45,473 nt of DNA, taken from contig QPMI01000240.1 of the NCBI GenBank assembly GCA_004431415.1, forward strand, positions 1-45,473, in the 5' to 3' direction. Below the pieces are notes generated by a model that saw only the letters and a program-made list of their open reading frames with translations, had not been told where the DNA came from and did no database searches. Below, in pieces: positions 1-44,256 of this stretch (within the stretch, counting starts at the first letter, position 1; each line of letters begins with the position of its first letter). The translations under genes were made by a program, and so were the position numbers. This stretch comes from Cyanophora paradoxa CCMP329. Its lineage: Eukaryota > Plantae > Glaucophyta.

Positions 1-282
1 ATATGTGCGAATGTGCCGGCGAGGCGGGAAGAGGGACGAGAATAGTGACGGGGGGAGGGGTGGGGAGGAGTCGTCCGAAAAAAGGAGTCGGGCATCGGGG
101 ATGTCCATTCCACCAATATAGTGGTAGGGAGCCGAGGCAGAGAACGTCTGCGGGGCGGTAGGTAGGGGGGCAGCTGGTCCGCTGAGGGGGACACGGGGTC
201 GGCGGGGGGAAGAGGGGGCCGGGCGGCGGGTCGTCGTTGGTGTCGGAGCCGTTGCAGGTGGCCGCGGGATGGTCTTTGGTTG

Positions 283-699
283 GTGAGAGGGGACCCACTG
301 AAGCGTGACTTGGAAGTTCGGGTCTTGGGCGATACGAATGGCGTATTGCGTTCGAGCGTTGAGGAGAAGGGCCCCGTCTTCTCGGCGGAGCAGGGTGCGG
401 AAGTTGATGGGATGGGAGAAAGATGAAGGGTCTTGAAAGGCGAAGGCTGTCAGGGCGCGGATGGTGTTCTGACTGTCCGTGATAATTTTCCCGCCCTTGG
501 GCCCGAAATACGTGAATGCTGCGGAGATTGTGCCTGCTAGCTCTCCCAGGTTCACGTTGTGTTGGACGCCGGGGAGGCGGTGGGCGAACTCGATTCTGTC
601 AGGCAGGTCGGGATTATTTTCGAGGGGTGCAAGGCCGGCGTAAGTGGTTCGGACGGAGGCAGAGCCCTGTTTTTGTGTGCTGGCGTCCGTGTATATTAT
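283..699 (-). CDS. RNase H domain of the same retrotransposon (frame runs off the left edge, so it is absent from the ORF track)
   Basis: Manual translation gives IIYTDAS (from 699) ... VNLGELAG ... KIITDSQN ... LQWVPSH (297-283), i.e. three of the four acidic catalytic motifs. Confidence 0.88.
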
Positions 700-1801
700 T
701 CGGGGAGTAGGGCCGGGGGGAGGGGGTGGGGAGTTGAGGGCACGGAGCGTCGGGCAGAGTTTGGCAAAAAGAGCTCGAGAGGTGGTGAAGACGAAATCGA
801 GCCCGGCCGGGGATTCAAAGAATACACGGTCGGCTTGTGAGGTGGGGGTCATCGGGCGTGGGCGTCGCTCAAGGGCAACATTGGTGGCCTGGGCCTCCGC
901 ACGGAAAGAGTCCCACCAGTCAGTTTCCCGGAGCCAGAGATCGATGAAGCCAATATGTGTGATTTCACGGGGGAGGTTGGGAGGGGGAATTTCGGGGTCA
1001 TATTGGGCCGCGGAGGCGTCGGAAGAGGGGTCACGGCGGGCCATTTTTGCTGCTCGTGTGGGCTGAGCGCGTGTGGTCTGCTGCCCTCTGGAGTGGGAAC
1101 ATGTGAAAGCGGAGGCGGAGTCGGGCAGCTGCCGGGAGCGGGTGGGAGCCGGCCTATTTAGGTTGGAGAGGCTCGGAGACCAGCCCTTCGATTCGCACGA
1201 GGAGCCTGCCGGAATTCGCCGAACGTGGGATGCGTATTCGACCCATCTGCAAGCAGTCGTGGAGAGGCCCAGCTCGCGATGTAGTTGTTCAGAGCCGCAA
1301 TACTGTGGGTGGGGACAGAATTGGAATTCCAGTTTGCGTTCACGCCAGGCGGGGTCGAGTTCCAGGGCCGATAGACCGGGGTCGCGCGTGGAAAATCCAT
1401 CGTAAGGGGTGAGGCAGTAATGGACGAGTTCCACCCCATAGTTATACTCTGAATCTCGGGGGCAGTTAGGATCCGCATCGGAGTCCTCCGAGGCTAGTTC
1501 GTCCGGGTTTTCGTCTGGGATAGGGGGTTTCCCCACGACGCGGCCGACCAGGCCTTGGGATGTCCAGACAAAGTCACCAATGTTGAGTCCCGCAAGGACG
1601 GCATTGGCTTGGAGAGAGCGACGAATGTCTGGGATAGAGGGCGGCGGGGGCATAGGGTAGCGGGGGAGGAAAGGAGACCGAATGGAAGGGCGGGAGAGAG
1701 AGAGTTCTTCGCGGACAGCGTCCCACCAGGAGGGGGCACGTTTGTAGTATGCCGGGACACGGCCGTGACTCCAGAGGAGGGACCATTCGGCAAGGGAGCC
1801 G

Positions 1802-4800
1802 TCAGGGGCCGTGATGTCGCGGATTGTGAGGAGGCCGCAGCGATAGAGTCGCTGACCGGCTTGTTGGAGGGTGAGGGGCGACAATTGCGTTGATATAATA
1901 TATTCTCGTCGAAGATGGGATCGGCGGGAGGGGAGGCCATGTGTCCAGATCGCACGTTGTGAGGATGTGATGGGAGGTGGAGGTCAGGTCTGCCGTGATG
2001 GCAAGCGTAATATTTTTCTGTAGTGTGAGGGGCCCCGAGGGGAGGTTCGGATATTCGTGTGGGAGAAGGGGAAGCCCGTATCGGGCCTGGGTGTCGAGGA
2101 CACGTTGTCGGTATATTTGGCCGTAGAGTGATGATGTGTGAGAGGCTAGTTCCTGGCGGAGGCGCTCGTCGACGCACTGCTGTTGGCGTTGGATGACAGC
2201 TATTGAGGGAAGGCGATAGATGGAAGAGAAGGCAGCCGTGGATACGGACTGGGCCAGGTTGGCCGTGTGTTTGGCCGCGGTGAGCCAGACAGCGTCGAGG
2301 GATTGGCATTGGGATGGCGTTAAGGTCATGATGCGGAGAGGGTATGCCAGTTTAGGGAAGAGAACCCGATGTAGTATCACTTGGAATTCGTGAACGGTAA
2401 TCTTCTTTGTGGCTAAAACGGAGATTGCGGACTGGAGCTGGGACTTGAGTAGACGGACTTGGTGGGTCCAAGACAGGTTCGCAGTAAACTGGACGCCGAG
2501 GACGCGGAATGGTGTTGTGGGGGAGAGGATGTGGCCAACTTCAGCTCTGGAATCGCCAACGCCGACATAGTATTTGCTCTTGACTGGCTCTTCGGATCGG
2601 GGGGGTTTCCAGTGGAAAATTTCCGTCTTTTTGGCGTTCAAGTTCATGCCATGGATATGGAGAAATTCGGACAGCCAGTCAAGCATATGTTGGAGACCCT
2701 GAGCCGAGCTGGCAAGCATGGTGGTGTCATCGGCGTATGCGAGCACAGAGACTGTGGGGCAGGGACCGGCGGGGAAGTAGAGGGGTTCGCCAGGGCATGG
2801 TGGGCGGGGGGAACGGGGGCGGGTAGGGTCAGATCGGTGCGGCCCGAGCTGGTAGCCGAAATTGGACTGAGTCGCTCGTTCTTCAATGGCGGTGAGAGCG
2901 GCGTCGAAGAAAATGCACCAGTGGAGAGGGGCTTCGATGCCTCCTTGGGGGAGGCCACAGGGGACTTGAAAATATTCCGTGCGGCCGTGGGGGGTAAGGA
3001 TGCACGCCGTGCGGTGTTGAGCTGCTTTTTTGTGGAGGGCTATATATCGTTTCCCTTCAGGATGGAGGTGGAGTTGGATACGATTAAGGCTGAGCTCTTG
3101 GCTATGCCAGGAGACACTGTCGTAGGCGCTGGCAATATCCCCCAGGCCGCCGAAGATTGGCTTTTTGAACTGGTGCGCGTCCTCGAGGGAGGATCGGAGG
3201 GCGTAGAGAACAGGGTCGGTAGATTCGCGGCGACAAAAACCATAGTTGCGGCCGCGTAGAATGTTATGTGTATCAATGCGGTCTTCCATGCGGTGGGTCA
3301 GGAGGCCCGTGACCAGCTTCCAGGTGACTTCTTGAAGGGTGATGGGGCGGAGATCGGCGAGATCTGCTGAATTATCTCGTTTCGGGATAGCGTAGACTTG
3401 ACCGCGAAGTGCGTGGTCGGGCACGTGGCCGAGAAGAGTGGATTGAACTAGAGCTCGGATGGCGTCGCGCGAGGTGGTCCAGTGGGCCGCGGACTCGAAG
3501 CTGTTTATCTCGTCGGTAGAGTGTGAGGCGGCTAAGGCCTGGCGTTCCGTCTTGGAGAGGCGGAGGGGGGACCAGAGCATTTTAATCATTCCGTTCGTGA
3601 AGCCGGAGGGACCGCCAGCGCCATTGGACAGGGACGAGATGAGGCGATCGAGTTCGGGGTCCTCTGGCATGGCCATTAGCCTGTCCCAGACGGCAGGGGT
3701 GAAGTGGGAAAGGGGTCGGTACTGGCGTTTCCAAAATCTGCCCAACCAGGCGCCGTTTTCAATGTCCTCGAATTTCGTAGCTATGGCATCCAGGTTTGGG
3801 GCAGCCTTGCGGAGTCGCCAGAAATTTGTGAAGTGATCCAGATGTGCGCGTTTAATTTCATTGGGATCAGTGAGCACTTCGGGTAGCCCCGCTGCCGTGC
3901 GGGTAAGGTACAGGCGGGGGGCGGATCGGAAGCGGGAGAGAAGGAGTTGAATAGCCCGACCCATACTTCGACAGTGGGACAGGAGGTGGCGGCGGGTGTC
4001 AATATTGCGAGCAATGTCGGCTTCGGTATATGCACGGCGATGATTGTCCAGGGCGGCCCGCGCCTGTAAGTGCCATGTACTTAGTTGAGTATGGTACTCG
4101 GCGATTTCAGAGCCTGTAATGGTACCATTCTCGAAGTCAGGGTAATTAGGAGGGTCGGGGAAAGCGAGGAGGGAGGGGCAGAATGCCAGTGTGGTGTCCG
4201 AGCCCGCAGATTTTCGGATGTCCGTCACGTCTTTGGGAAGGTCCCGGAGGACAGCCCGGATAGTTTCGTCAGGCGGGTGGTCTGTGGAGCCTTGGTGCGC
4301 CCAGTCGTTTAGGGCCTGTCCAACGCGGCCAACGAGTTGTTCGTCGTCAGCGTCCAGTGCAGATAGGTGGTTGAATTTAGCCATATCTCCCTGGGCAGCT
4401 ACTCGGTGTCGGAGGACTTTTGCGGTAGAGAATTCTGGAGCGTGAGCGACGGATTTGATACTTTGGGTGATTGCGCAGAGGAGGGAGCGGTGGGATTTCG
4501 TGGCGCGGTGGGCGTATTCGGGGCTGCTCTCGGGAGCGAGAAGGAGCTGGATATACCGCTGGCCGTGTTTATTGAGAAAAGCTTCGACAGCGAGCTTGAA
4601 AGCAAGCCGGATGGTTGCAGGCTGGGCGGCATAATTGAAGAGAGGAGGGAGAGGCTGGGGTCGGGGCTGGCGGGGTTCGGTCGGGGGGGCAGAGAGCACT
4701 CCTTCGGTTGTGAAAGTAGCAAGTACTGGGAAGTGGTCGGCTGAGAGCAGGGGAGAAGGTCGTCCAGGGACAGCCAGTGTACGAGTGCCTAGCGATCGGG

Positions 4801-7800
4801 CCGCTAGGGTGGGGGAGGCAAGGGCATAGTCGAGGCGGGCGGCATCCAGGAGAGGGCGGTGGCCTTGCTCATCGATGAAGTCCGCGCGGTGTGAGATGTG
4901 CGTGAAATCGCCGGGGGTACCGGTGTCGCTGAGGCCCCAGGTCGCTCGAAGGAGGGTCCAGATTTCCGCGTAGGAGTTCGGGGGGGTAGTTTCAGTGCGC
5001 GGGTTGCCCCCGGTGATCCGGTCGTTGCACGGAGAGTAGGTGCTATTCATATCGCCGAGTACCAGGAGATGTGTCTGCCAGTCAGGTTCGTGGATGTCGG
5101 GTGCGACCTTTGCGATCAGGTAGTCGGTGAGGTCGTGGAGCTCTTTTTGCAAATTGTCGTGCCCACAGTCCGGCACATAGAGTGAAAGGACAATGAGGCG
5201 CTCGCGCGTGCGCGGGAAGTCAAACCGAGCGCCGGCTACTCGGCCATCAAACGCATAATCCGCCTGGCGGTGCGCTGCATAGCTTGCTGAGATCCACAGC
5301 GCGGAGCCGGCGGTGCCAGGGCGGGCCGCAGATGGAGGGGAGTAGACAAGGTAGCTAGATTTATGGCGGCGGACTGCTGTCTTAATCAGGTGATCGCGGA
5401 TATTGGGCGGAAAGGGTTTCGAGGGGGGACGGTCGACGGGGACCATGTCGACCTCTTGAAGAGCAACGAAGTGACAGTCCCAGTCACGGCGGCCATAGTC
5501 AATGGCGCTGATAAATTTAGTTGCAATATTGTTGCCGCTCGCCTTCCCCTCCAAGCGGCGAATATTCCACGTGAGGGCGCGGAGGTTCAGCTTCGCATTA
5601 GCCGCGTCCGGGGGGTGTGCTAGGACAGGGATCTGGAGCACATCACGATGGCGGCGAGCGTCAATACGGTCAGCGGTGTAAAGAGAGGGAGGGTATAACA
5701 TTAGAAGGGACGAGGCCGCCGTGACTAGTGTCGGAGAGGAGAGGGCAGCGGCGGCGGTAGCGACTGCAGCGGCCGTTGCTGTGCTGGGCTCGATGTCCGC
5801 AAGAGCGGCGGGGACAAGGCCGGCGAGGAGAACACAGAGGAGGAGGCGCGCGGGGAGAGGGGCCGGGCGGCTGACGAACTGTTGGACTTGTGGGGCGCGG
5901 CGCGCAGGCCGGCCCAGGAGTTCGAGACCGGCGTCATGCGGCGCAGCGTCCGTGACGCCGGCGTCGGCGGGGCCAGCGCTGGCGTGCACGTGGGCACTAG
6001 CGCGGGGGCTAACTGCGAGGTACGCGGCCGTACGCATGGCTAGTACGCGTCCGGATCCGTACGCGTGGTTCGTACGACAACTCTCGGCGTCATGCAGCGC
6101 AGCGTCCGAGCTCGAGGCGCCGGCGTTGGTGGGGCCAGCACTAGCGTGGGCGCCAGTGCTAGCTGAGTAACTAGCTATAGAGCGGCTATTCAAGCACTCG
6201 CGGATTGCGGTCCAATTTGCGGAGGCATTGGGCCGCTTCGAATCATTGCCCGACTCACCAATCGCATGAATAAAAAAACCTGTTCGCGTTGGGGTTTTTT
6301 GACGGCACGCGGTGGGGGTACCGGTAGGCGCAGTGTCGTCCGGGGCCCTGAGACGTTCCGACCGGAAGGGGAAACTCCACCGGCTACTGCAGTATGCGAC
6401 GGCTCTGATGGGGCTTCCGTGCTCCAGTCCAGCGATCAAGTTCTGGAGCATGCCGTAGCGCGGTCTAGCGACCGTGGTCCAGGAGGTGCTCCAGATGTAG
6501 ACACGGCGACTGAGCTGTGAAAGTACTTGCGCGGCCTGCTGGATGCCGAGGCGAGCAGCGCGGCGTGGCGCGGCAGCGGCAATAGCATCTCGACTGGGAT
6601 TGACCTCTTGCGACGCGCTCGACGGGCGGGGCGTTGCAGAGGGACCTCCGGGACACTTCTGCAACCTTAGGTTTGCTCTAGGGATCGGACAGTCGGCTCG
6701 GGCGCAGCGCCGAGCCGCCGGGCCGACAGCGTCCTGCAGGTCGCGCGGCGTGGGCGGAGGCGAGACGGGCGGCGCGCTGAGGACCGGCGGCGGCTTCGCG
6801 TCAGGTCCGGGTCCGTCAGCACGGGCGCGGAGCAGGGCAGCGGAAAGGCTGATAGTGTCTTGCAGGTCGCGTGGTGCCGGCGCGGGCGGAGGCGAGACGG
6901 GCGGCGCGCGGGGGCCCGGCGGCGGCTTCACTGCGGGTCCGGGTCCGTAAGCGCGGGTGCGGCGCCGGGCAGCGGTGAGGCCGACAGCGTCCAGCAGGTC
7001 GCGCGGCGCCGGCGCGGGCGGAGGCGAGGCGGGCGGCGCGCTGCAACCCGGCGACGGCCTCGCGTCGGGGCCAGGTCCGTCAGCACGGGCGCAGCGCCGG
7101 GCGGCGGGGAAGTCGACAGCGCCCTGCAGGACTATCGGCATGGGCTGAGGCGAGGCGGGCGGCGCACCGGGGCTCGGCGGCGGCTTGTCTTCAGGTCCAG
7201 GTCCGTCAAATCGGGCGCAGGGCGGGGCGGCGGGGAGGCCGACGGCGTCCCGCAGGTCTAGCGACGCGATCTGGGGCGAGGCGGGTGGCACGCGGGGGCT
7301 CGGCGGGGGCTTCACTTCCGGCCCAGGTCCGTCAGCTCGGGCGCAACGCGGGGCGGGAGGGAGGCCATCAGCGTCCCGCAGGTCTAGCGACGCGAGCTGG
7401 GGCGAGGCGGGCGGCGCGCGGGGGCTCGGCGGCGGCTTCACTTCCGGCCCAGGTCCGTCCGCACGGGCGCAGCGCGGGGCGGCGGGAGGGCCGACAGCGT
7501 CCCGCAGGTCTAGCGGCGCGAGCTGGGGCGAGGCGGGCGGCGCGCGGGGGCTCGGCGGCGGCTTCACTTCCGGCCCAGGTCCGTCAGCTCGGGCGCAGCG
7601 CGGGGCGGCGGGAGGGCCGACAGCGTCCCGCAGGTCTAGCGGCGCGAGCTGGGGCGAGGCGGGCGGCGCGCGGGGGCTCGGTGGCGGCTTCACTTCCGGC
7701 CCAGGTCCGTCAGCTCGGGCGCAGCGCGGGGCGGCGGGAGGGCCGACAGCGTCCCGCAGGTCTAGCGGCGCGAGCTGGGGCGAGGCGGGCGGCGCGCGGG

Positions 7801-7819
7801 GGCTCGGCGGCGGCTTCAC
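1802..7819 (-). CDS. Retrotransposon polyprotein core: APE endonuclease (~5590-4700) and reverse transcriptase (~3400-2480); probably part of a longer ORF broken by frameshifts
   Basis: APE motifs: LTWNIRRL, VALQEVD, VLGDMNS, RLDYALAS, SADHFPV. RT motifs: LRPITLQ, NYGFCRR, DIASAYDSV, GLPQGGIEAP, LAYADD (2737-2726), LNAKKT, RVLGV. Confidence 0.95.
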   Translation of the reverse strand: MKPPPSPRAPPASPQLAPLDLRDAVGPPAAPRCARADGPGPEVKPPPSPRAPPASPQLAPLDLRDAVGPPAAPRCARADGPGPEVKPPPSPRAPPASPQLAPLDLRDAVGPPAAPRCARADGPGPEVKPPPSPRAPPASPQLASLDLRDADGLPPAPRCARADGPGPEVKPPPSPRVPPASPQIASLDLRDAVGLPAAPPCARFDGPGPEDKPPPSPGAPPASPQPMPIVLQGAVDFPAARRCARADGPGPDARPSPGCSAPPASPPPAPAPRDLLDAVGLTAARRRTRAYGPGPAVKPPPGPRAPPVSPPPAPAPRDLQDTISLSAALLRARADGPGPDAKPPPVLSAPPVSPPPTPRDLQDAVGPAARRCARADCPIPRANLRLQKCPGGPSATPRPSSASQEVNPSRDAIAAAAPRRAARLGIQQAAQVLSQLSRRVYIWSTSWTTVARPRYGMLQNLIAGLEHGSPIRAVAYCSSRWSFPFRSERLRAPDDTAPTGTPTACRQKTPTRTGFFIHAIGESGNDSKRPNASANWTAIRECLNSRSIASYSASTGAHASAGPTNAGASSSDAALHDAESCRTNHAYGSGRVLAMRTAAYLAVSPRASAHVHASAGPADAGVTDAAPHDAGLELLGRPARRAPQVQQFVSRPAPLPARLLLCVLLAGLVPAALADIEPSTATAAAVATAAAALSSPTLVTAASSLLMLYPPSLYTADRIDARRHRDVLQIPVLAHPPDAANAKLNLRALTWNIRRLEGKASGNNIATKFISAIDYGRRDWDCHFVALQEVDMVPVDRPPSKPFPPNIRDHLIKTAVRRHKSSYLVYSPPSAARPGTAGSALWISASYAAHRQADYAFDGRVAGARFDFPRTRERLIVLSLYVPDCGHDNLQKELHDLTDYLIAKVAPDIHEPDWQTHLLVLGDMNSTYSPCNDRITGGNPRTETTPPNSYAEIWTLLRATWGLSDTGTPGDFTHISHRADFIDEQGHRPLLDAARLDYALASPTLAARSLGTRTLAVPGRPSPLLSADHFPVLATFTTEGVLSAPPTEPRQPRPQPLPPLFNYAAQPATIRLAFKLAVEAFLNKHGQRYIQLLLAPESSPEYAHRATKSHRSLLCAITQSIKSVAHAPEFSTAKVLRHRVAAQGDMAKFNHLSALDADDEQLVGRVGQALNDWAHQGSTDHPPDETIRAVLRDLPKDVTDIRKSAGSDTTLAFCPSLLAFPDPPNYPDFENGTITGSEIAEYHTQLSTWHLQARAALDNHRRAYTEADIARNIDTRRHLLSHCRSMGRAIQLLLSRFRSAPRLYLTRTAAGLPEVLTDPNEIKRAHLDHFTNFWRLRKAAPNLDAIATKFEDIENGAWLGRFWKRQYRPLSHFTPAVWDRLMAMPEDPELDRLISSLSNGAGGPSGFTNGMIKMLWSPLRLSKTERQALAASHSTDEINSFESAAHWTTSRDAIRALVQSTLLGHVPDHALRGQVYAIPKRDNSADLADLRPITLQEVTWKLVTGLLTHRMEDRIDTHNILRGRNYGFCRRESTDPVLYALRSSLEDAHQFKKPIFGGLGDIASAYDSVSWHSQELSLNRIQLHLHPEGKRYIALHKKAAQHRTACILTPHGRTEYFQVPCGLPQGGIEAPLHWCIFFDAALTAIEERATQSNFGYQLGPHRSDPTRPRSPRPPCPGEPLYFPAGPCPTVSVLAYADDTTMLASSAQGLQHMLDWLSEFLHIHGMNLNAKKTEIFHWKPPRSEEPVKSKYYVGVGDSRAEVGHILSPTTPFRVLGVQFTANLSWTHQVRLLKSQLQSAISVLATKKITVHEFQVILHRVLFPKLAYPLRIMTLTPSQCQSLDAVWLTAAKHTANLAQSVSTAAFSSIYRLPSIAVIQRQQQCVDERLRQELASHTSSLYGQIYRQRVLDTQARYGLPLLPHEYPNLPSGPLTLQKNITLAITADLTSTSHHILTTCDLDTWPPLPPIPSSTRIYYINAIVAPHPPTSRSATLSLRPPHNPRHHGP

Positions 7820-10030
7820 TTCCGGCCCAAGTCCGTCCGCACGGGCGCAGCGCGGGCGGCGGGAGGGCCGACAGCGTCCCGCAGGTCTAGCGACGCGAGC
7901 TGGGGCGAGGCGGGCGGCGCGCGGGGGCTCGGCGGCGGCTTCACTTCCGGCCCAGGTCCGTCAGCTCGGGCGCAGCGCGGGCGGCGGGAGGGCCGACAGC
8001 GTCCCGCAGGTCTAGCGGCGCGAGCTGGGGCGAGGCGGGCGGCGCGCGGGGCTCGGTGGCGGCTTCACTTCCGGCCCCGGTCCGTCAGCTCGGGCGCAGC
8101 GCGGGGCGGCGGGAGGGCCGACAGCGTCCCGCAGGTCTAGCGGCGCGAGCTGGGGCGAGGCGGGCGGCGCGCGAGGGCTCGGCGGCGGCTTCACTTCCGG
8201 CCCAGGTCCGTCAGCACGGGCGCAGCGCGGGGCGGCGGGAGGGCCGACAGCGTCCCGCAGGTCTAGCGACGCGAGCTGGGGCGAGGCGGGCGGCGCGCTG
8301 GGGCACGGCGGCGGCTTCACTTCCGGCCCAGGTCCGTCAGCTCGGGCGCAGCGCGGGGCAGCAGGGGGGCCGACAGCGTCCCGCAGGTCTAGCGGCGCGA
8401 GCTGGGGCGAGGCGGGCGGCGCGCGGGGGCACGGCGGCGGCCTCATCTCAGGTCCGGGTCCGTCAGCTCGGGCGCAGCGCGGGGCGGCGGGAGGGCCGAC
8501 AGCGTCCCGCAGGTCTAGCGGCGCGAGCTGGGGCGAGGCGGGCGGCGCGCGAGGGCTCGGCGGCGGCCTCATCTCAGGTCCGGGTCCGTCAGCACGGGCG
8601 CAGCGCCGGGCGGCGGTGAGGCCGACAGCGTCCCGCAGGTCTAGCGGCGCGAGCTGGGGCGAGGCGGGCGGCGCGCGGGGGCTCGGCGGCGGCTTCACTT
8701 CCGGCCCAGGTCCGTCAGCTCGGGCGCAGCGCGGGCGGCGGGAGGGCCGACAGCGTCCCGCAGGTCTAGCGGCGCGAGCTGGGGCGAGGCGGGCGGCGCG
8801 CGGGGGCTCGGCGGCGGCTTCACTTCCGGCCCAGGTCCGTCAGCTCGGGCGCAGCGCGGGCGGCGGGGGGGCCGACATCGTCCCGCAGGTCTAGCGGCGC
8901 GAGCTGGGGCGAGGCGGGCGGCGCACGGGGGCACGGCGGCGGCTTCACTTCCGGCCCAGGTCCGTCAGCTCGGGCGCAGCGCGGGGCGGCGGGAGGGCCG
9001 ACAGCGTCCCGCAGGTCTAGCGGCGCGAGCTGGGGAGAAGCGGGCGGCGCGCGGGGGCTCGGCGGCGGCTTCACTTCCGGCCCAAGTCCGTCAGCTCGGG
9101 CGCAGCGCGGGGCAGCAGGGGGGCCGACAGCGTCCCGCAGGTCTAGCGACGCGAGCTGGGGCGAGGCGGGCGGCGCGCGGGGGCTCGGCGGCGGCTTCAC
9201 TTCCGGCCCAGGTCCGTCAGCACGGGCGCAGCGCGGGGCGGCGGGAGGGCCGACAGCGTCCCGCAGGTCTAGCGGCGCGAGCTGGGGCGAAGCGGGCGGC
9301 GCGCGGGGGCTCGGTGGCGGCTTCACTTCCGGCCCAGGTCCGTCAGCTCGGGCGCAGCACGGGGCGGCGGGAGGGCCGACAGCGTCCCGCAGGTCTAGCG
9401 GCGCAAGCTGGGGCGAGGCGGGCGGCGCGCGAGGGCTCGGCGGCGGCTTCACTTCCGGCCCAGGTCCGTCAGCACGGGCACAGCGCGGGGCGGCGGTGAG
9501 GCCGACAGCGTCCCGCAGGTCTAGCGGCGCGAGCTGGGGCGAGGCGGGCGGCGCGCGGGGGCTCGGCGACGGCTTCACTTCCGGCCCAGGTCCGTCAGCT
9601 CGGGCGCAGCGCGGGGCAGCAGGGGGGCCGACAGCGTCCCGCAGGTCTAGCGGCGCGAGCTGGGGCGAGGCGGGTGGCGCACGGGGGCACGGTGGCGGCT
9701 TCACTTCCGGCTCAGGTCCGTCAGCTCGGGCGCAGCGCGGGGCAGCAGGGGGGCCGACAGAGTCCCGCAGGTCTAGCGGCGCGAGCTGGGGCGAGGCGGG
9801 TGGCGCACGGGGGCACGGCGGCGGCTTCACTTCCGGCCCAGGTCCGTCAGCACGGGCGCAGCGCGGGGCAGCAGGGGGGCCGACAGAGTCCCGCAGGTCT
9901 AGCGGCGCGAGCTGGGGCGAGGCGGGCCGCGCGCGGGGGCTCGGCGGCGGCTTCACTTCCGGCTCAGGTCCGTCAGCTCGGGCGCAGCGCGGGGCGGCGG
10001 GAGGGCCGACAGCGTCCTGCAGGTCGCATG
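6690..10030 (-). repeat. 126-bp tandem array (~26 units) encoding a 42-aa Pro/Ala-rich repeat
   Basis: GGTCTAGC recurs at 7255, 7381 and 7507. Unit: EVKPPPSPRAPPASPQLAPLDLRDAVGPPAAPRCARADGPGP. Units degenerate toward 6690-7250. Confidence 0.95.
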
Positions 10031-13000
10031 GCGCAGTGGGAGGCAAGGCGCGCGGGGGGCTGGGGCCCGGCGGCATATGTGGCATGCGAGGCGTGATGCA
10101 GCTGGGGCCCCGGCAGGTGGTTAGACCCTGTCCGTCGATCCAACTAGTAGACGTCGGAGTGGTCATGCTCGAGGGCCCCCGCATTTGCGTGCGGCCGCAA
10201 GCAAGGAGGGCAGCGATAGCTCCAAGAGCAATGAGAAGGGGACTGGCCATGGGGAGAAAGGGGATGAGGGGAAGGTGCAGGACGGGATGCGCAGCAGCAG
10301 GTTGAATGTGCCACAAGAGGGCGGCGATGATGGTGAGGAGCTTGGGGGAGTAGTGTGGGTACGGGGCTTTCTTTAAGGGGCCACGGGGGGATATAGTGTC
10401 TAGAGCAGTTTGTAGGGCGTGGCCTGCTAAAGCAGAAACGGTCACTATCGAAATAAATTCTAGGGGTTCTGGAGGATGGCCTAGAAGAAGGAGGAAAGGC
10501 AGGGTAAACGGTGCAGCCAGCACAGCCGGGGCCAGGCCCGGGTCATCTGAGACATAGAGTGCATGCAGGAGATCAGCCCCGAGCTGCCATAGTGCACAGG
10601 AAAGCACATGCCATTCGGCCGCGAGGAAGGCCGGGAAAATAATAGAAAATTCAAGGAGACGGGGTGCGAGAAGGAGAGCAAAGTCGGCGAGGCGGGTCCA
10701 AGCAAACGCTGCCCGGCGGCGTTCCAAAGGGGACAAGGCCGGGGGAGGGCGAGGGGAGGTCGGGGGGGGAGGGACAGGGCAGGTAAGGAGTTGAAGAAGA
10801 GCAGGGCCGGACGAGTTAAGAAACCGCCGGCGGCGCCGGGAGAGGAGTGCGAGCAGAAGGATCCCGGCAGCTGGCGGGGGGAGGGGCAGAGGAGTAGGGG
10901 GAGGCGGGGGCGGGGGGAGGGAGAAGGGTGGGAGGGGGGGAGCAGTTGCTCGGGGTGTCCTAAGAGGAGGGGCGGGGGGAGGGCTGGTCGAGGGGGCCGG
11001 GTACGAGGGATCAATGATCCATAATGGGGATACGGGAACCGCTGCAATAACGAAGCGGAGGGCGTCGATAAGGTGAGGGGCAGTTGTAAGGGGAGGGAGG
11101 GCAAGGAGACAGTGAAGGGAGAGGATAAGGAGGGGGGCCCCGCGGTAAGGGCCTCCACATCGACGCCCGCGGGCTCGTCGCGCATGCTGGGCTTGCCGGC
11201 GGGCGCGAATGAGGAGGGGACGGTGGGCGCTGGGAGCGGGATCGGGAAAAACAAGGTGGCGAAGGAAGCGAGCAGACAGCAGGAGGAGAAGCAGCGAGGG
11301 GAGGGCGAGGAAGGCGGGGGAGAGCTGAAGATAAGACGGGGGCCTGATAGAAGGGGGGAAGAAAGAGGCGGGAGAGGCGGGGAGAGGGGGCGGTGCCCTA
11401 GGGGTAGTCCACAAGGGGAGAGGGGGGGGGTCAGGGGGGGCCGAGAGAGGAGGCGACTCCGCGAAGGACACTGCGGAGGGGTCCAAGGGGGGGAAAGGAG
11501 AGTTCTATGTAAGAGCCGGGCAATCAAAGGGTGAAGTGGGGGGTACTCTGAGAGGCGGGGGGGTAGCTGGAAGAGAGATGAGAAAGGGGGTAGTGAGAGG
11601 GCGAGGAGAAAGGAAAGAAGAGAGAGGAGAGAGAGGGCGGAGAGGGCGAGTAGCTCGGGGGTTGTGATATGGGGCAGGGGAGGGCACGAGCCGTGCAGGA
11701 AGGCATAACGGGGGGAAGTGGAGGCCGTACAGGGGGAAGGGGGGTCAGGGACTGCCGTTAACGGGCGTCGGCGCGGCTCAGGGGCGGGCTGGAGGCGGGG
11801 CTCTCGGGCTGGGCGGCGGCGGGTGGCGTGGCCCTTGAGGCGCCGGGCGAGGAGGGGCGGGCGGGGTCGGGGAATGGAGCGGCCAGACGAGAGCGCGAAT
11901 CGGACCGTGAGGCGGACACCCCGGGGCGGGGCAGGAGAACTGGCGAGGGAGCTGGCCTGCGGAGCCATCGGGCGCGTCCTCACAGCTGCTGGGGGGGGTA
12001 AAGAGGGCCAGCTGTTCCGGAGGGCAAGAGCGGCTGCAACGTTGCAACGTGCCCGCGCCGTCGAGAAGGGAGGGCGCGCGGGCAGGGGCGTCAGCGGGCG
12101 CAGGGTACGGGGGCGTACACGATTGGACTGTGCAGGGCGGAGGCCAGGTAGGGGGAGGTCGGGGCGGGAGGGCGGCGCAGCAGAAACCTGCAGCTCAGCC
12201 GGTAGGGGTGGGGGGGCCCGGGAGCTGAAGAAACGACGGAGGCGACGCGGATGACTCTTCCGCGAGGCCCGGGGCCGGCGAGGCGAGGGTCGGCTCTGAT
12301 AGGGGGAGAAGGGCGAGCGCGGGAGCCAAGGAGTTGCACCAGCGAGGGCCGGGCGGGGTGTAGGGCAAGAGCGGGGGCGGGAGCGGCGAAGGCGTCGGCG
12401 GGCGGACCTCGGCAGGGGCCGCCAGGGCCGGCGACGGCGGCAGGGCGTGGGGCCTAGCAGCGGGGCGGGACGGCGAGGGGGGCGGAGTAGGCGCGGCGAT
12501 CGGGGGCCCCGGCGGAGGCCCGGGGGTCCGGGTTCGACTTCGCGGGGGGCGGGCTCGGCGGCATCGTCTAGGCGCCGGCGTCGTCGGACATAGCCCCGGA
12601 CGCCGATTCCCACGGACAGGCTAAGCGCCATGAGTGTCGCCAAGGCGGCCCAGCTGGGACTAGATAGGAGCCCGAGGATCTCAGAGGCGTAGACGTAGGG
12701 AGGGGAAGCCCAGGTGGAGGGTTCAGCTAGGGGCCCGAGGACCGGGGCAAAGCTAGCCGCCAGCGGGAGGAGGGCGAGGAAAAGAAAAGAAAACAGACCA
12801 AAAGTGGAGACGCCATGCCGGAGACCCAGTTTCCTGCGAGGAAGGTGTGGCATGAGAGGGTCGAGGTGGAGAGGCGGGCGGCGGGCGGGCGGGCGGGAGC
12901 GCGCGCGCGGCGGAGAGCGAACAGCAGGGGGGCATCTTACCCCGGTGAGCCTTGCGGCCCCGGGGGATCGACGCGCGGGTTGCCTATCCTCGGAGAGCCG

Positions 13001-13702
13001 GGCCGCGCGACGACGGCGTGTGGCCCCGTGGCATCGGCGCAGCGGGGGAGACCGGACGGCTAGCCAAACCGCACGACGACGGTGTAAGGCCCCGTTACAT
13101 CGGTTCCTGTGTGGATTGAGGGGGGGCTTATTCATGGATAGCCAAACCGCACGACGACGGTGTAAGGCCCCATGACATCGGCCAGAGCGAGGCATGCCTT
13201 TAGCGTCGGCAGCGAACGCGGGGGGCACGTCGTTCGAACGTCGGCCGCCCGCGCCCGCCACGCAGTGAAAGAGTGGTGATTTGAGAACTGCGGGGCGGGC
13301 GTGAGGCCCGGGCGGGTGGCGCGAACGACGCGCGAGGCGGGGTGATGTCCCTTCGCAAGGGCGCATCGCACGGGGGCTTCTGCAAGCAGAAGGAGCTTGT
13401 TCGGTCGGTCGCCGCCCGGCTCGAGTTCCGTCGCGGGCGGCGTTGGCTTCTTGGTGGTCGCTCGGCTCGAGAGTGAGCGCGGCGCCACATCGTTCGACTC
13501 CCTCTGCACCGCCGAGCTGCGACGCCGCTTGGATTGCATCTTGTTGTTGGCGTTGCGTCGCGAGCCTTGTTTTCGGCTCCGGTGTGCTCGGGCGGTGTCC
13601 TCCAGCTCCGTTTGGTGCCGGGAGGCTGTTTATGCTGCTGGACGATGCGCTAGCATCGCCAGTTTCCCGTACGCGCAGGCCTTCGCGATGGCCTGGGTAC
13701 AT
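10030..13702 (-). CDS. N-terminal hydrophobic, Pro/Arg-rich part of the retrotransposon ORF (one frameshift near 11490)
   Basis: ORFs 10481-14419 and 8820-11486 overlap and switch frame at a G run. They contain several Leu-rich hydrophobic stretches. The first ATG inside the element is at 13702; the true start is uncertain. Confidence 0.55.
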
Positions 13703-13710
13703 CGTTTTTT

Positions 13711-14600
13711 TCCCACCTCGACCTCCCCGGGGCCGCCGTCGCTGCCCCGGCCGGCGCGCAGGCTCCTCCGGCGGACGGGGCGCACCGGCCCTGCGGCAGA
13801 CCAGGACGCACGCACCGGCCTCCTCGCCCCCGTCTTCCGTCCGGGATCCTCCGCGACCTCTGCACCGCGCGCCCCGCCCCGGCCCGCCCCGCCCCGGCGG
13901 CGCGTGATTCGGCGTTGGGCGCAGGTCGTGGAGGGCCGGGACGAGGACCGGAGGGGCTCGCTGCCGACGCGCGCGGCGGGCGCCTCGTCGTCCACAGGCT
14001 GGGGCCTGGTGCGCCCCCGGACCCCCGCCCCGCCCGGCCGCCCCGAGGGCCCCCGCGCCGGCGGGCCCCGGGGACGCTGCTCTGCGGCTGCGGGCGGAGT
14101 GGTGCGGGGCGGGGCCCCTCCGGAGACCTCTTAGGCTCCTCGCCGCGCCCGCGGCTGCAGCGACGCCGACGCGGATCCGGAGGCCGCGCCGCGTCGGCGG
14201 GCGCGCTGCAGGCGCCCCGCCCGCCCCGGCCCCCCGCCCCGGCGACCTCCCCCCCGGCTCGTGGCGGAGTGCGCCTGGCGCCCCTCCCGAACGTCGCGCC
14301 GCTCGCGCCCCTGGCGGGGCGGCGGGGCGCGGCGGGCGGCGGGCTCGACCTCCTCTCCGCGAGGGACCGTCGGACGCCGCCGGCCGCGCGCCCCGCCAGC
14401 GGCAGTCGCACATGTACACCGCCGCTCACGCCGTCGGCGCGCAAGGCCTCCGGATCCGGCACCGTCCCGCAAGACAGCTGGCCACATCGTTCGAGTCCGA
14501 GGGATCCTGGTGGAGTAATTGGAGTCCGGAAGCAGTGTCAAAAGTATTACAGCACCTTCCGCTGGCGTGGGCGCCAGGTGCGACGTTGATCTCGATCTAG
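13711..14600 (+). pseudogene. 3' part of an unknown host gene, cut on its 5' side by the retrotransposon
   Basis: Host-type intron ((CCCCG)n ... GCGCAG at ~13924) and a frame ending ...SWWSNWSPEAVSKVLQHLPLAWAPGATLISI*. No recognisable domain. Confidence 0.3.
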
Positions 14601-15657
14601 CATTGGATCGCTACCTTAGCTTGAGATAATTTCGCACAGATTTCGACTGCAGGTCTTCCAGCAAAAGATGTGAGCGGTGTTCACGTATCTGAATCTGGGT
14701 TACTCTAAATCGCGGACAGGACGCCATCAAGAAACGGGACCGCCTCGCTATCATTTGCGATCACATCGACGCTAGGACTGGGTGGTCACCTCGTCTTTCA
14801 GATGGTATTCTAAATTACCCTCGTTCTGGTGCGTTTGAAATACGCGAATTTATGAATACATAAGGAAAGAGTCTATAGCTACGACTGAATTTGGATCAAC
14901 GCAGAATACGAGGGGGAGGAGTTTTATGCCGCCCTTCAGAGGGGCGAGCTCGATCCAATCGATCACGAAGATATCCACAATCACGTCTTCCGAAGTTCGC
15001 TTTTCTAAAGCGACACGAGGACTCCGGCCGAGTCTCCGCCTTACAAGAGGTCCTTTCAAAAGTTTCTTATTCGCTTTTTCGCAAGCACAAAGTGGCGAAT
15101 TCAAATTTTTTAATGCGCGGATTCCTCGAGTTCGACGTCGAGCCAGGGAGGCATCGGCCGCGGGCTTCCGCGGAGTCTCCCGCTTCGAGGAAGGCTTGTG
15201 GCGCGGAAAGTTCTGCTGGCGGAGTCTCGACTTCTCTTCTGCATCTTCTTGGGATGCTCAGGTGATCGAGATCGTCATGCGCAAGGCGATGAGAGTGCAC
15301 GTGACTCAGTGACATCGACGATGCGTTCTGCGCTTCTTCTCGGGAGGCGGCGCGGTTGACGTTCCGCGACCGAGTTCCGCGACCCTCTGCCGCCAGCGGC
15401 TCGACGAGCGCGAGGGCACATGTACGCCCTCCCCGCAGCGCGCGCAGGACGCTCAGCTCAATTTCGACCCGTCCGGCACCTCTGATCGGATAAAACAATT
15501 CCGGAATTCGAATAGTATTCTTAAAAAATCCGTCCTTTGCATTTCCGGAATAATTTCAATCGACCGCGGATTCCAGGTTTCAAGAACGAGCCGTTCTTCG
15601 TCGACCTGCAAGACGGAAAGCTCAACGGGTACATCGAAGCAGCCTCGAACCCCCGCG
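14043..15657 (+). repeat. Left copy of ~1.6-kb direct repeat (putative giant target-site duplication)
   Basis: Near-identical to 24265-25864. Starts CCGAGGGCCCC and ends CCTCGAACCCCCGCG, directly before retrotransposon sequence. Confidence 0.95.
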
Positions 15658-16189
15658 GCCTGGAAATACGACACCAGCACCTTCCCCACCCAAGCCTGGA
15701 AACATGTCCACACGGGAGAAGACGCCGCAGAGTTCATTGGCCGTGGCGAGGAAGTCCATCTGTACGGCAAAGGACGGGGCCGCCCCATCCCCCTCCACGC
15801 CCCCATCTACCGGGAACGTTGGGCGGCCGCCCTCCTCCTCCGGGACCCTGAGGTCCTCCTGGGGACAATCCAGACCAACGGCCCGGCACTCACAACAAAA
15901 CGGCGACGCACGACCCCACGCACCAGCTCCCGCCCCCCCCAGCACACGGCCGCAAAAGCCCGCCGCCGTGTCCGACGCAAATGTGACCCCACCCCCCCTC
16001 CCTTCCGCCCCCCCCTCCCCCTCGTCCCCCACCCCCCCGGTCTCTCAACTCCCCTCCCCCTCCTCGCAACCCCCCACCCCCCCCACGCCCACTCCCCACC
16101 CCCACGCCCTCCGGCGCCCGAGGACCGCCCAGCTGCCTCCCCAGGCCGAACCCCCGTCCACCCGACTGAATTCCCCCTCCCCCGCCCCC

Positions 16190-16990
16190 TGACGCTGGCG
16201 GAGCAAAGCTGGCTGGGGAATGCCTTCCGGTTTGCAGACAATGATTACTGCGCGGAGCAAACCCTCGTGTCGCAGCCTCCCCTTCCACCTGCCCCCAGAG
16301 CCGACCCTCACTGTTACCCACCCATTCGTCGAGGCGACCTTATCCATCTCCGGCCGAAAGCCGCCCTCAGCCTCCCCCTAGTGGAAGCTTTCCTTGACCT
16401 GCTCTCCTCCCGCGAAGCCGCCCTGGCCTCGCCCCACCCTGCCTACTTCCTGTCGTCCAGCTCATACCCCGCTAGTGCATGCGCAGCCTCCCACTTTGAC
16501 TCCCGCGGCGCCGCTCTCCCCCCCTGCACCAATACCTTCCTCACGGACGCCTTCTCAAAGCCCGCCTCGTTCTCGTTCCCATCCTTACCTATCGCTCCAC
16601 CCAACATATTCCACCGACCCCTTGCCGACCCCCCCTCCCGAAGATCCTGGCACCCCAGGGCCCCCGGGTCACTGGCATCTATTGGTTCTCCTTCCTCAAA
16701 CGCGATCGTTCTACTTCCACAACGGCTCCTCGAAGTCCCCGACCACCTTGTCTCCTTTGCACAAGACCTGGCAGCCACCTGGAATCAGCGCGACTCCGGA
16801 GTCTCCCCCCCTCCCCCAATTTTGCAGGTGGACCTACCTACGTCCGGAGACATCCCTCTCCGTTCTCCAGCCCCCCAACAGCACGGCCTGCGGTCCCCTC
16901 CTTCTCCTTACAGCTGACTTACTCAGTCGCTCCTCCGCACTTACCCCGTCGGACCTGCCCCGCCCCCCGCCTACATTCAGACCGACGCTG
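16190..16990 (+). CDS. Ulp1/SENP-like (C48, clan CE) cysteine protease domain in the retrotransposon ORF, frameshifted in this assembly
   Basis: Ordered motifs across frames: IRRGDLIHLRP...LVEAFLDLL, AYFLSS, RLVLVPI, GHWHLLVL (His 16670), SFYFHNG, LQPPNSTACG (Gln 16868, Cys 16889). Confidence 0.7.
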
Positions 16991-17223
16991 CAGCGCTCCG
17001 CAAATACCGCGAATATATAGCCCTCAGCCTCTGTTACGGGTCCGTCACCCTTGACCCGATATGCTGCAGTCCCGCTCTCCCGGCCCTCAGACCCCCACCG
17101 ACCTTCCCGGGGCGTACCCAACCGCCACGCCGCCCCCAGTCTCCACCGGCGGTACCCTGCCTACGCTAGACTCCCCACCATCCTCCCCCGACCACCCAGC
17201 CCTCCCGCGCTCCCCCACTGTGC

Positions 17224-19940
17224 TTGTGTCTCCCCCGCCCCGCCCCGCAGGGCCTGCCACCCCCCCCCCCTCCCGGCGCTCGCTACGCACAAGAACTCGC
17301 CTCCCAGCTCGCCGACCTGGCTCGCAACGAAGCCTCGGCAACAGCGCGCCGCCTCTTCCGACCGTCCCACGTGACTCCACTTGAAGCGGCAACCATTCTA
17401 GCTGAAGCTGCTCACCGGGACGCCACCCAGCCGCAACCAAGGTCCGCCAAAACATCTAAAGCAGCCGCAAAGAAAGAGACGGCCAGGACCCCGGCCAAGA
17501 ACCGCATCCCGAACCCAGCTTACACCCCCGACAACCTCCACAATGACGCCGTCGACAAGCTTGCCAAATCGGCCCCTAACGCCCCCCTCTCAGCCCTCCT
17601 CTTCGTCCCCACAGTTTCACATGCTTCCTCATCCGCGTCGGCCTCCCACCTCCGCCATCGCACGCCCAGCCCCGGGAGTCGAACCATACCGAGGCCGACT
17701 CCACGCGTACCGCGTCGAAGGAGACCCCGCTCTCACTTCCTAGCCGAAGCCTCCCTCTCCCAATACCTTGACTGGCGCCAGCTTCGCAATGCGGGGGCCA
17801 TCCTCAGTAACCCCCACGTCACCCTTGCCCCGGCCCTCTCTCTCGTATCCGATAAGCCGCCGGATCGCCGAACCCCCACAGGCGACCACCTCCGCAAGGT
17901 CCGATTCCAATGCATTCTCGGAGCTCTCCCCTCCCTCACCGTCCGCCTCCTTCACGACCCCGACCTCTACGGCCCTCTCTTCCCTGACGGCACCGCCCAC
18001 TGCCCTTTCTGCCACCTCTCTCCCACCCCTGCCCCAATCCCGGACGACACTGTCTCCCCCCCCTCCTCCCCTCCCCACCCCCCCTCCCCCCCCCCCTCCC
18101 CTCCGGGGGCCGCAGACCCCGGACCGCCCGACCCACAACCCACCCCCCCGAAGACTTTGCTCACATATTTACTTGCCCCGCCGCTCATCTCCTCCTCCAA
18201 GCTTTCCAGGACGCACTCGTGACCTTCCTCCGCACCCGGGTTCTCCGCCATTCGCCCAAACCCTTAGGACACGACGACACTATCTTTGAACTCTTCCCTT
18301 CCTCCGCCTCGTCTCCCCTGACCCCACCTCCCCCTCCAATCCGCCTCCTCTCTCCCAATGCAAATCCAGCCCTTTTCCGCCCCCCGGTCTCACCGACACC
18401 CTATGGAAAAGCTTAGCCCAGCCCTGGCTGACATGCTCCCCTTCCCTGCCCTGCCCTCCTGCGCCTGGGTACCCCAGCAGGATTGCCCGCCCTCTGCACA
18501 GCCCTGGGCATCAACAAGACCACCACATCGCTAATCCAAAAAGACCGAGCTCTGCTCCTCGACCAACACCTGCGTGCAATCTGGAGGGACCGCTGCACCC
18601 GCAATCACGCTTGGGAGTTCCGTCACGGCATTACGGACAGAACCAAACGCCGGTACCGCAAATGGGCAGGCCTCAACCGCCCACCTCCCGAGCAGCCGCC
18701 TGGTCCCCTCCTCCCCCAATCCTCCCCGCCCCCTCCCTCCATGACACCATCTCCATCACCAACTTCTGCTGCGGATTGAGCTCGGACGGCCAACCTTGGG
18801 TCCTCCTTGCGAATCTCCGCCAAACAATTGCACGACTCCCTGCCGCCCCCCACCCAGGCCCCTCCCTCCCCAGCCGCCGCCGCAGGACCCGCCGCCGGGA
18901 CCTCTGATTTCTCTTGCACCTGCGGCACCCGCTTCCCCTCCGCAGCTGCCCTCCAAGCTCACTCCGACGCCAGAAAAGGAAAATGCCCTGCCCGCCCCGA
19001 GATCATCCCCTGCCCTACCTTCCAACCTGTGGTACCCCTATCACGACCGTCACCCGAGAACCCCGACGATGTTGTCCTGCCCGCCTCACCTGCGGGCCCT
19101 ATGAACACTGCTCAACCTTCCAAACGCCCCGCTACGGGGCCCCCCCTGGCCCTCTCCCCGAAACGCCCACGCCCGTCGCCTGCCTCGCGCAAACGGACAG
19201 CCGATACACCCCTCGCTCCGGCACCCAAACGCCCGTGCCCCGTCATCCCTCCCCCTCCCGCCCCCGCACCTGCCCCGCCCGTCCCTACGACGAAACGAAA
19301 GGCATCCGGCCGCAAGACCCCCAAGCGCAGGACCAAAAAAGCGCGAACGGTGCCGATACCCATGGGACAACCCACAATCACGTCCCTCTTTACACCCGGC
19401 GTGTATAAACCACTCACGACGCCGCACACAGCTGACTCTCCCCCCCTCTCCCCGCCCCAGCCAACTCTTCCGATCGACAACGAAACCCCGCAAGACGCCG
19501 CCCCTCGGCCCCCCACGGCCCCCCCTCCGACCCAAACTAACCCTCACACACCAAACCCCCAGCCGGCCCCAGTCACCACCCAGGCCTCGGCCCCCCCAGC
19601 GGCTTCGGCCCCTCCCCTGGCTTCGGCCACCCCATCGGCTTCGGCCACCCCCCTGGCTTCGGCCAACCCCATGGCTTCGGCCACTCCCCTCGCTCCGCCC
19701 TCCCCCCCTAACCCGGTCGACCCCTCCCGACCCCTCGCGGCCCGTCTCGCCTCCGCACTCCCAGATCTCTGCGCCGCCTGTCAGTGCCCACGAACTCTCC
19801 ACTCTGTTATCCCCGCACCCCTCCCTGCCTTGCCCGCATCCGCTGCCCGCCCCAAACTGCTGCCTCCGCTCACTCCCTCTCCTTCCTCATCTCCTCCTCC
19901 TACCACCTTCTTCACCTTGACAAAACGGGACACCGTCTAA
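17224..19940 (+). CDS. C-terminal part of the retrotransposon ORF (RNase H end, CCHC, zinc-finger-like motifs, basic NLS-like patches); frameshifted
   Basis: Pieces of ORFs 17224-18222, 18483-18779 and 18807-19940, including FSCTCGTRFPSAAALQAH, KRKASGRKTPKRRTKK, QPTITSLF and CAACQCPRTLH. Stop at 19938-19940. Confidence 0.65.
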
Positions 19941-43819: not shown

Positions 43820-44172
43820 CTGTAAGTCGGGAAATATTTAGTATACTGGATCTTTATAGTACCAAAGTTTTGAGGCCTGACTACTAAAGTTTTATCGTAT
43901 ACTAAACCGAGGTGCGAGGGGGGTACGTATCCCGCCCGCGCAGCCAAAGATGCATTGCGGGAGAAGCTAGCTATAGTGCGAGGGGGCTTCCGGACTCTCC
44001 AACAGATCATGCAAGACCCCCTGGCCGCCGGGCGCGCCCACCCCCTTCCAAATTAAAGGCCGCTACTAAAGCGCTCCGCGCGGCCAACTCTTAATTATTT
44101 TCAGCCTACTAAACCGACCAAACCCCGGGATTACTAATTATTTTGGGGTCTTAAATATTACCCGAATTACAG
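43820..44172. mobile_element. MITE with TA TSD (Tc1/mariner/pogo-like)
   Basis: Ends TA|CTGTAAGTCGGGAAATATTT and AAATATTACCCGAATTACAG|TA. A second copy starts at 45271. Confidence 0.8.
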
Positions 44173-44256
44173 TACATGACTCCATGATGAAACCGTACCA
44201 GTATCATCCCGGGCCCATTGATTCCCGGGCCCACGGTCCTCAGTGTTATATATATA

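Follow-up and report, generated by a model that had tools for sequence, protein, structure and literature searches.

The proteins of long interspersed elements (LINEs) are regarded as soluble, and the longest LINEs described measure 10–13 kb. The polyproteins of flaviviruses and hepaciviruses are cut by signal peptidase. For LINEs with a single open reading frame (ORF), such as Ingi/L1Tc, Rex1, Crack, L2 and CR1, one report describes a 2A peptide before the APE endonuclease and proposes that it frees the upstream functions (PMC3708506). Here, we analysed a stretch of 45,473 nucleotides of Cyanophora paradoxa CCMP329 (contig QPMI01000240.1), hereafter the window, whose minus strand carries, from ~13.7 kb to the window edge at position 1, a multi-copy APE-type retrotransposon without long terminal repeats (non-LTR), with reverse transcriptase (RT), RNase H and no separate ORF1. 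It likely encodes one giant polyprotein of at least 4,570 residues, estimated at ~6,400, and the hydrophobicity of the 2,710-residue extension that precedes the APE is not due to chance. With as much credence as doubt, we read three pairs of segments in this extension, each signal-like and then stop-transfer, as looping through the endoplasmic reticulum (ER), where host signal peptidase would cut the polyprotein into four membrane-tethered pieces facing the cytosol.

A Pfam scan of 20 frames placed an APE endonuclease at 4772–5575 (minus strand; PF03372, E=3.6e-05, 24.1 bits against a cut-off of 24.5) with the motifs TWNIR, LQEV, LGDMN, RLDY and SADH, an RT at 2489–3388 (minus strand; PF00078, E=7.9e-19; YADD at 2737), and an RNase H at 280–699 (minus strand; PF00075, E=2.7e-04) with the first three acidic motifs and the His loop; the APE and RNase H scores fall just below the curated cut-offs. 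The APE lies upstream of the RT in the same frame, the nearest solved structures to the RT are R2 proteins, and the RNase H frame continues off the window at position 1. The top relatives are APE-RT(-RNase H) proteins, and C. paradoxa proteins are 92% and 98% identical to parts of the element. The best relative, P0001 (3,720 residues from the APE on, 49% identical, APE E=8.1e-08), reaches the window end at its residue ~1,850, from which we estimate the whole element at ~6,400 residues and ~19 kb. The original prediction, made from the letters of the stretch, had assigned APE and RT, in agreement with Pfam; it had included neither the RNase H, nor a 3.3-kb coding repeat, nor the Ulp1-like protease found downstream in relatives. 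A word-index homologue search with the APE-RT gave no match, and three scans of viral contigs found no relative. The published PacBio-based assembly of C. paradoxa is reported to contain 2.47% LINE sequence (PMC6704402).

The Ulp1/SENP-like domain occurs in P0001 and in a plus-strand copy within the window, with H, D/N, Q and C motifs (Pfam C48 E=0.0018, below cut-off); a profile that includes the clearer P0066 domain matches SENP2 at 4.5e-09, and the AlphaFold model is weak, with a predicted local distance difference test (pLDDT) score of 39.9. RNase H itself appears to be split (window 280–699, minus strand; P0001 residues 1624–3156). As far as the His loop WVxSH, it is matched by a profile built from 11 relatives; the best continuation follows ~1,080–1,170 residues further on (P0001 2841 or 2926, scoring 19.0 and 17.3 bits where the median is 5.2), and the insert contains the Ulp1-like domain. 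Two relatives have a different cysteine protease close to RNase H or to the C-terminus, OTU-like in P0014 (E=0.0015) and a Peptidase_C48 in P0066 (5e-15). After the CCHC knuckle of P0001, we found neither a Pfam match to a restriction-like endonuclease (RLE), which Dualen/RandI elements have there in addition to the APE, nor the crude pattern PD-x(8-16)-[DE]-x-[KT].

As assembled, the region upstream of and including the APE-RT is spread over four long minus-strand ORFs. The window copy has seven small frame breaks, six of which lie upstream of the APE and need single-base insertions; with an N placed at each of the seven, there are 0 stops over 4,570 codons, from the ATG at 13702 to position 1. 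We compared short-read contigs from four runs (X1, X7, X15 and X17) over 10040–15800 and 1–6800. Behind 11477, in a G run, every spanning contig of three runs has one extra base (depth 160.7 of 160.7 in X1, 184.3 of 184.3 in X7 and 71.4 of 71.3 in X15; X17 was without cover). This is the sole length difference common to all spanning contigs in the 5' part, and the extra base joins the frame of the first signal-like site to that of the second; the further coding-region indel listed there is a compensated pair at 12359/12362. At a two-base break at 1947–1949 (minus strand), other copies (X1, X7 and X15) have two more bases, which join the RT to the RNase H frame. Apart from these two closed breaks, all net length differences in the coding part are multiples of three. 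Those remaining in the enzyme part and in the linker at 5852–6691 (minus strand) are insertions of 6 bases, four in number, and two skips, one of 51 and one of 69 bases. Contigs on the element also come from two runs guessed to be RNA, to which we gave no weight as evidence.

The other five breaks fall within a 126-bp tandem repeat of 26.4 units (6692–10025, minus strand; ~3.3 kb), read in frame as a Pro/Ala-rich unit of 42 residues and contributing ~1,100 of the 2,710 extension residues. Five of 22 near-identical units are 125 bp long, each one C short in a C run (starts 8891, 8766, 8137, 8012 and 7887), losses that are presumably errors or private mutations of the window copy. The same 42-residue peptide is encoded in the ORFs before and after the breaks, and at either end of the repeat the units pass over into unique sequence with the frame kept. 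Across 17 full units, 20 of 39 distinct variants are synonymous against 32% expected, with no new stop, a score equalled by the mirror antisense frame, which shares third positions. Judged by its sequence, the repeat is coding. The fused polyprotein of over 4,000 residues put forward by the original prediction is upheld as to its 4,570 open codons, once the seven breaks are closed, whereas in the assembly as it stands the quoted motifs fall in three frame segments.

The element is multi-copy up to its 5' edge. Contig depth, a rough guide rather than a copy count, was ~250–555 on single X1 contigs over 10.3–13.7 kb against 66–70 on the flank at 13702–14072. X1 contigs keep a depth of 555 up to 13681, the single-copy flank contig (69.5) begins at 13702, and an X15 contig matches to 13711 and then diverges. 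These depths place the end of the multi-copy sequence at 13711–13731 and, with the first ATG at 13702–13700, the boundary within 13700–13731 (minus strand). Since the 5' region is multi-copy, copies do not all start near the APE, and the objection to that effect, raised alongside the original prediction, falls away. Contigs diverged by ~10% are present over both the 5' part and the APE-RT, as expected of two subfamilies, and in other copies, too, the repeat probably links the two parts. Dispersed copies with 5' truncation, a trait of APE-type elements, are indicated by contig depth and by a plus-strand copy at 15654–19990.

We defined a hydrophobic segment as 19 residues with a Kyte-Doolittle mean of at least 1.6. 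The frame from 13702 to 10026 has 0 stops, against 15.7–17.9 in shuffles (minimum 4) and 20–43 in the five other frames. It holds nine hydrophobic segments, against 0.6–1.0 in local nucleotide shuffles, 0.8–3.8 in residue shuffles and 0–1 in other frames, a number matched by 0 of 1,000 shuffles in each of 10 shuffle sets; the 1,870 residues from the APE on contain none. An origin of the hydrophobicity as a by-product of CT-rich sequence was rejected by the shuffles that keep local nucleotide composition, and the second objection, that the region is a CT-rich non-coding by-product, fails on its stops and on its segments. The extension as a whole had been described as multi-membrane. The nine segments against about one expected and the three signal-like sites agree with this; the membrane-like part, however, is confined to residues 298–1170 and 2620–2680, because the coding repeat fills ~1,100 residues.

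Residues 1–297 (12812–13702, minus strand) form an Arg/Ala/Pro-rich soluble region without a Pfam or Atlas match, which has a 46-bp internal duplicate and three C-[HN]-G-A-x-x-R-R-R repeats at 13177, 13099 and 13033, and which is likely an RNA-binding stand-in for ORF1p. Pfam found no match in the two upstream ORFs, including no RRM, knuckle or esterase, and the pattern C-x2-C-x4-H-x4-C is missing from the 2,710 residues before the APE, as the original prediction had said of gag-knuckle, RRM and esterase. There is a single frame and not the two-ORF layout of L1-like elements with a separate ORF1 bearing an RRM, a CCHC knuckle or both. An Arg/Pro-rich stretch at 11663–12568 (minus strand; 66 K/R against 10 D/E in 305 residues) is predicted to be cytosolic.

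Three segments of the extension resemble signal peptides, their (−3,−1) sites being called by a rule-based script and not by SignalP. Segment 1, FSFLFLALLPLAAS (12749–12811, minus strand; charge +4 before, −1 after), has a loose site, and is followed by a predicted stop-transfer segment and RRRRR at 12569–12655 (minus strand; −1 before, +2 after), which includes ALSLSVGIGVRGYVRRRRR at ~12569–12625. Segment 2, LLTIIAALLWHIQPAAA (10290–10340, minus strand; +4 before, 0 after), ends QPAAA with a strict site and an upstream Pro, and a second predicted stop-transfer segment lies at 10194–10259 (minus strand; 0 before, +2 after). Segment 3, LLLCVLLAGLVPAALA-DIE (5795–5851, minus strand; +2 before, −1 after), ends VPAALA, again with a strict site, and continues into DIEPST; after it comes a charge-free Ala/Thr/Ser/Leu stretch of 39 residues (5672–5788, minus strand; −2 before, +1 after), a marginal stop-transfer candidate. 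On one hydrophobicity scale, the stretch before the APE is more hydrophobic than any window from the APE on, but weakly so. All three segments have n, h and c regions, small residues occupying positions −3 and −1, and the two strict sites read [AV]-x-A with Pro just upstream. Between pairs 1 and 2 lies a cluster of about seven hydrophobic segments (10482–11653, minus strand, with the frame break behind 11477), at 11597–11653, 11262–11318, 11085–11141, 11013–11069, 10839–10871 followed by RRRRR, 10623–10679 and 10482–10538, with GILLLALLSRRRRR at ~10824–10871 on the minus strand; its single-sequence AlphaFold model is helical at low confidence (pLDDT 46.5). The five hydrophobic motifs quoted in the original prediction were all found on the minus strand where it had placed them, the last in frame with the APE-RT.

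Each pair opens with a signal-like segment, which a short stub separates from a second hydrophobic segment that has basic residues after it (residues 298–378, 1122–1170 and 2620–2690). In-out-in hairpins follow the positive-inside rule, and all six pair segments show a hairpin-type charge bias over 15 residues on each side, the pairs having been picked after inspection of the sequence. If host signal peptidase does process the polyprotein, segment 1 would be where the signal recognition particle (SRP) directs the nascent chain to the ER, and each hairpin would present a short lumenal stub for cleavage. The predicted products would be an Arg-rich piece (residues 1 to ~317), an Arg-rich multi-pass piece (to ~1138), an anchored piece carrying the 42-residue repeat (to 2638), and a fourth, likewise anchored, comprising APE-RT-RNase H-Ulp1-CCHC. 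Cleavage would then stand in for the ORF1/ORF2 split, and an RNA-protein particle might gather on the ER or nuclear envelope, from where the APE-RT could be brought to chromatin by the Ulp1-like protease or by moving laterally into the inner nuclear membrane. What leads us to signal peptidase is that single-ORF LINEs must part RNA binding from APE-RT, that 2A is absent here, and that a signal-like site occupies the same position.

The same segments could instead act as uncleaved anchors, the whole polyprotein being tethered to the ER or nuclear envelope with the Pro-rich repeat as a long flexible spacer and any processing left to its own Ulp1-like protease. In yeast Heh2, a long linker together with a basic signal gives access to the inner nuclear membrane; the hydrophobic cluster and the coding repeat are real, and P0001 and the plus-strand copy have the Ulp1/SENP-like domain. 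We nevertheless consider this unlikely, since it leaves unexplained both the (−3,−1) sites that follow hydrophobic cores, here and in distant relatives, and the positive bias on the N side of the three signal-like segments. The original prediction had raised env-like modules; an env-like or fusion role in transfer between cells is hardly credible. The signal-plus-anchor pattern does resemble that of viral envelope polyproteins. Terminons, moreover, are described as having ORFs with transmembrane domains (PMC6431247). However, the predicted lumenal stubs measure ~6–32 residues, contain no sequon (there are four in the whole extension) and offer no ectodomain-like region, let alone a large lumenal ectodomain with a fusion fold; the charges put the repeat in the cytosol, and we found no capsid-like part and no family or Atlas match.

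Relatives were collected with a HMMER search using the APE-RT, from which the best 150 of 3,872 matches were used; with 11 near-duplicates, the fragments and a single repetitive protein removed, 31 remained that have at least 35 residues before a located APE, this element included. Among the matches listed, an uncharged hydrophobic 10-mer occurs within 130 residues before the APE in 9 of 31 proteins (8 of 30 without this element). Across the 31, such 10-mers number 3.4 per 1,000 residues before the APE and 0.16 per 1,000 after it, a 20-fold difference. An [AV]-x-[AG] site accompanies 7 of the 10 segments upstream, or 6 of 9 if this element is left aside, and 0 of 14 downstream ones (Fisher p=3.5e-4), the segments of relatives ending, for example, PVEA, PVSA, LVDA, PVVA and FVHG. 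Relatives with a segment before the APE are spread over at least five RT lineages in a quick tree of 82 rows, which serves only to show the scatter of the trait. By eye, P0107 has an ORF1-like region fused in frame, then a signal-like segment, then the APE; hydrophobic segments at the N-terminus go together with in-frame ORF1-like regions in P0107 and P0014, and more than one hydrophobic segment precedes the APE in P0167, which has several. In metagenomes, 23 of 78 loci had a located APE and upstream room; of these, two were open to the contig start and two had long extensions, one with a hydrophobic segment. At metagenome locus L001 (10–1620), the APE is preceded by a 536-residue in-frame extension, in which we found a single hydrophobic segment as well as three short repeats of peptide sequence. 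A canonical 2A peptide was rejected as a candidate, D[VI]ExNPG being absent from the element (DIEPSTA at site 3) and from 167 of 167 fetched proteins.

A number of observations weigh against cleavage by signal peptidase. Within the extension, site 1 has a match to the loose rule only, and the return segment after site 3 is marginal. Homology among the three modules was rejected (p=0.4–0.7), despite their common EPST and LSSP words. As for the relatives, the thresholds of the before-APE comparison were set after viewing the sequences. The trait is also patchy, in that 19 of the 23 metagenome relatives have a closed frame of at most 150 codons before the APE, and the separate ORF1s that were read upstream of them are without hydrophobic segments. 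Finally, among seven relatives that carry a signal-like site, a return segment ahead of the APE is missing in five and marginal in two. In those five, canonical cleavage would place the APE in the lumen.

This last point is better fitted by a role of the before-APE segment in translation, through SRP arrest or a decayed or non-canonical 2A-like pause that would limit RT or favour binding of its own RNA, or by transit of the APE-RT through the ER followed by retrotranslocation. The sole D-[VI]-E of the 2,710-residue extension sits at site 3 (DIEPST). Reported precedents are 2A-like peptides, which can also serve as signal sequences, a few changes sufficing to turn either into the other (PMC4981915), and Ty1 Gag, which passes via SRP into the ER lumen and then back (PMC3945221). 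Such a role is nonetheless distinctly unlikely, given that D[VI]ExNPG is lacking throughout and that ten or so other upstream segments would be left unaccounted for.

The evolutionary evidence adds to the points against signal peptidase cleavage. Change counts were drawn from the top 40 of 254 and the top 40 of 518 differences. In the 5' part, 15 of 39 listed changes are synonymous against 31% expected (p=0.2), an omega of ~0.7 that indicates weak amino-acid constraint, and in the enzyme part 27 of 40 are (omega ~0.2). No homologue of the extension turned up in a word-index search of the hydrophobic region that covered near and shorter lengths, and an Atlas search with both hydrophobic frames gave no usable match. 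No contig bridges the 126-bp repeat, and the five breaks inside it were placed by comparison of its units. The same facts could be taken to mean that the extension arose incidentally, as read-through that evolves fast, or was captured from a neighbour, its hydrophobic patches without a role, or that the 5' part is a separate ORF or element only seemingly fused. In favour of that account are an omega indistinguishable from neutral and a repeat that no contig bridges, and in most relatives ORF2 does begin near the APE. Set against it are the absence of stops and the nine segments relative to shuffles, a frame maintained between two subfamilies ~10% apart, repeat units that grade in frame into unique sequence and favour synonymous change, in-frame linker indels, and the lack of any tail or junction between the parts. 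In the hydrophobic cores, 0 of 7 listed amino-acid changes add charge, Pro, amide, His or a stop, with 33% expected for each (p ~0.06). We regard incidental read-through or capture as quite improbable, and an unrelated neighbouring element, the third objection raised with the original prediction, was likewise judged unlikely, though no single contig spans the repeat.

Beyond the element, the window contains several other repeats. A 5'-truncated, frameshifted copy of the same element group lies head to head with it at 15654–19990 (plus strand; tblastn with P0001 residues 2844–3716, 37–78% identity). It carries the Ulp1-like motif at ~16320–16950, a CCHC knuckle and a stop at 19940, and so indicates the 3' part missing from the main element; a short GGA-rich stretch after the stop may be a 3' tail. 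This copy starts exactly at the end of the first member of a 1.6-kb duplicate (14043–15653 and 24265–25861; 98.6% identity with one-base gaps), whose contig depth is about twice that of the flank. Perfect 37-bp inverted repeats at 19995–20031 and 23935–23971 surround ~4 kb, probably a non-autonomous DNA transposon, within which a 300-bp duplicate occurs at 21920 and 22489. The word AAAAAAACGAT at the 5' edge of the main element (13701–13711) is also present in both 37-bp inverted repeats (20011–20028 and 23938–23955), which may reflect chance or a shared promoter word. Further right, duplicated blocks (35353–36337/38779–39752 and 36435–37236/40130–40935; 87–91%) and an inverted pair at the right end (43958–45473) are likely host gene duplicates and another small transposon.

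Whatever the mechanism, a single-ORF LINE with an estimated length of 19 kb exceeds the 10–13 kb given above for the longest ones described. How LINE particles are organised and enter the nucleus is an open question, above all where the nuclear envelope may stay closed. If signal peptidase cleavage is true, then besides two ORFs and 2A skipping LINEs would have a third means of keeping their structural and enzymatic functions apart, one parallel to that of positive-strand RNA viruses. The before-APE signal-like site recurs in several distant lineages, and we entertain as a tentative, rather unlikely generalisation that a widespread, so far overlooked non-LTR branch uses virus-style processing by host signal peptidase in place of the ORF1/ORF2 split. 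The ~19-kb, 6,400-codon element would be its extreme form, in which a replication platform on the ER or nuclear envelope would carry the APE-RT to chromatin without envelope breakdown, to be released by the protease inside its own RNase H. In the open literature, we found no description of a multi-segment or signal-peptidase-cut non-LTR polyprotein; Repbase entries, subscription papers and supplements fell outside this search and may hold the family.

Like the flavivirus and hepacivirus polyproteins, the element has a basic N-terminal piece, internal signals, stop-transfer segments and lumenal host cleavage, the last predicted here; unlike them, it shows no sequence relation that we could find, lacks envelope ectodomains and has retroelement enzymes downstream. 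With related APE-RT elements it shares APE, RT (25–33% identical), RNase H and a C-terminal CCHC knuckle. In most of these, however, RRM-like and knuckle motifs (by eye) mark an ORF1 of its own, and an ORF2 of ~1,600–2,400 residues starts near the APE, whereas the element described here lacks an ORF1 of this kind and has about three times the length. Some proteins of the telomeric non-LTR element FoTeR have an N-terminal signal by SignalP, described as a single prediction without a transmembrane helix (PMC12857005), and Terminons are giant and have transmembrane ORFs, but are Penelope-like with separate ORFs (PMC6431247). NeSL and Utopia-1_TSP are likewise non-LTR elements with an Ulp1-like cysteine protease, but are described as RLE-type with the protease N-terminal (PMC4640811), while here it comes after the RT, apparently inside a split RNase H. 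The closest parallel in layout is with the single-ORF LINEs that carry 2A, in which, as reported, one ORF also has a short hydrophobic peptide N-terminal to the APE that would separate the upstream functions (PMC3708506). The present element differs from them in lacking D[VI]ExNPGP, in having three sites and about ten further segments within a 2,710-residue extension, and in that a host membrane protease, rather than ribosome skipping, is proposed to make the cut.

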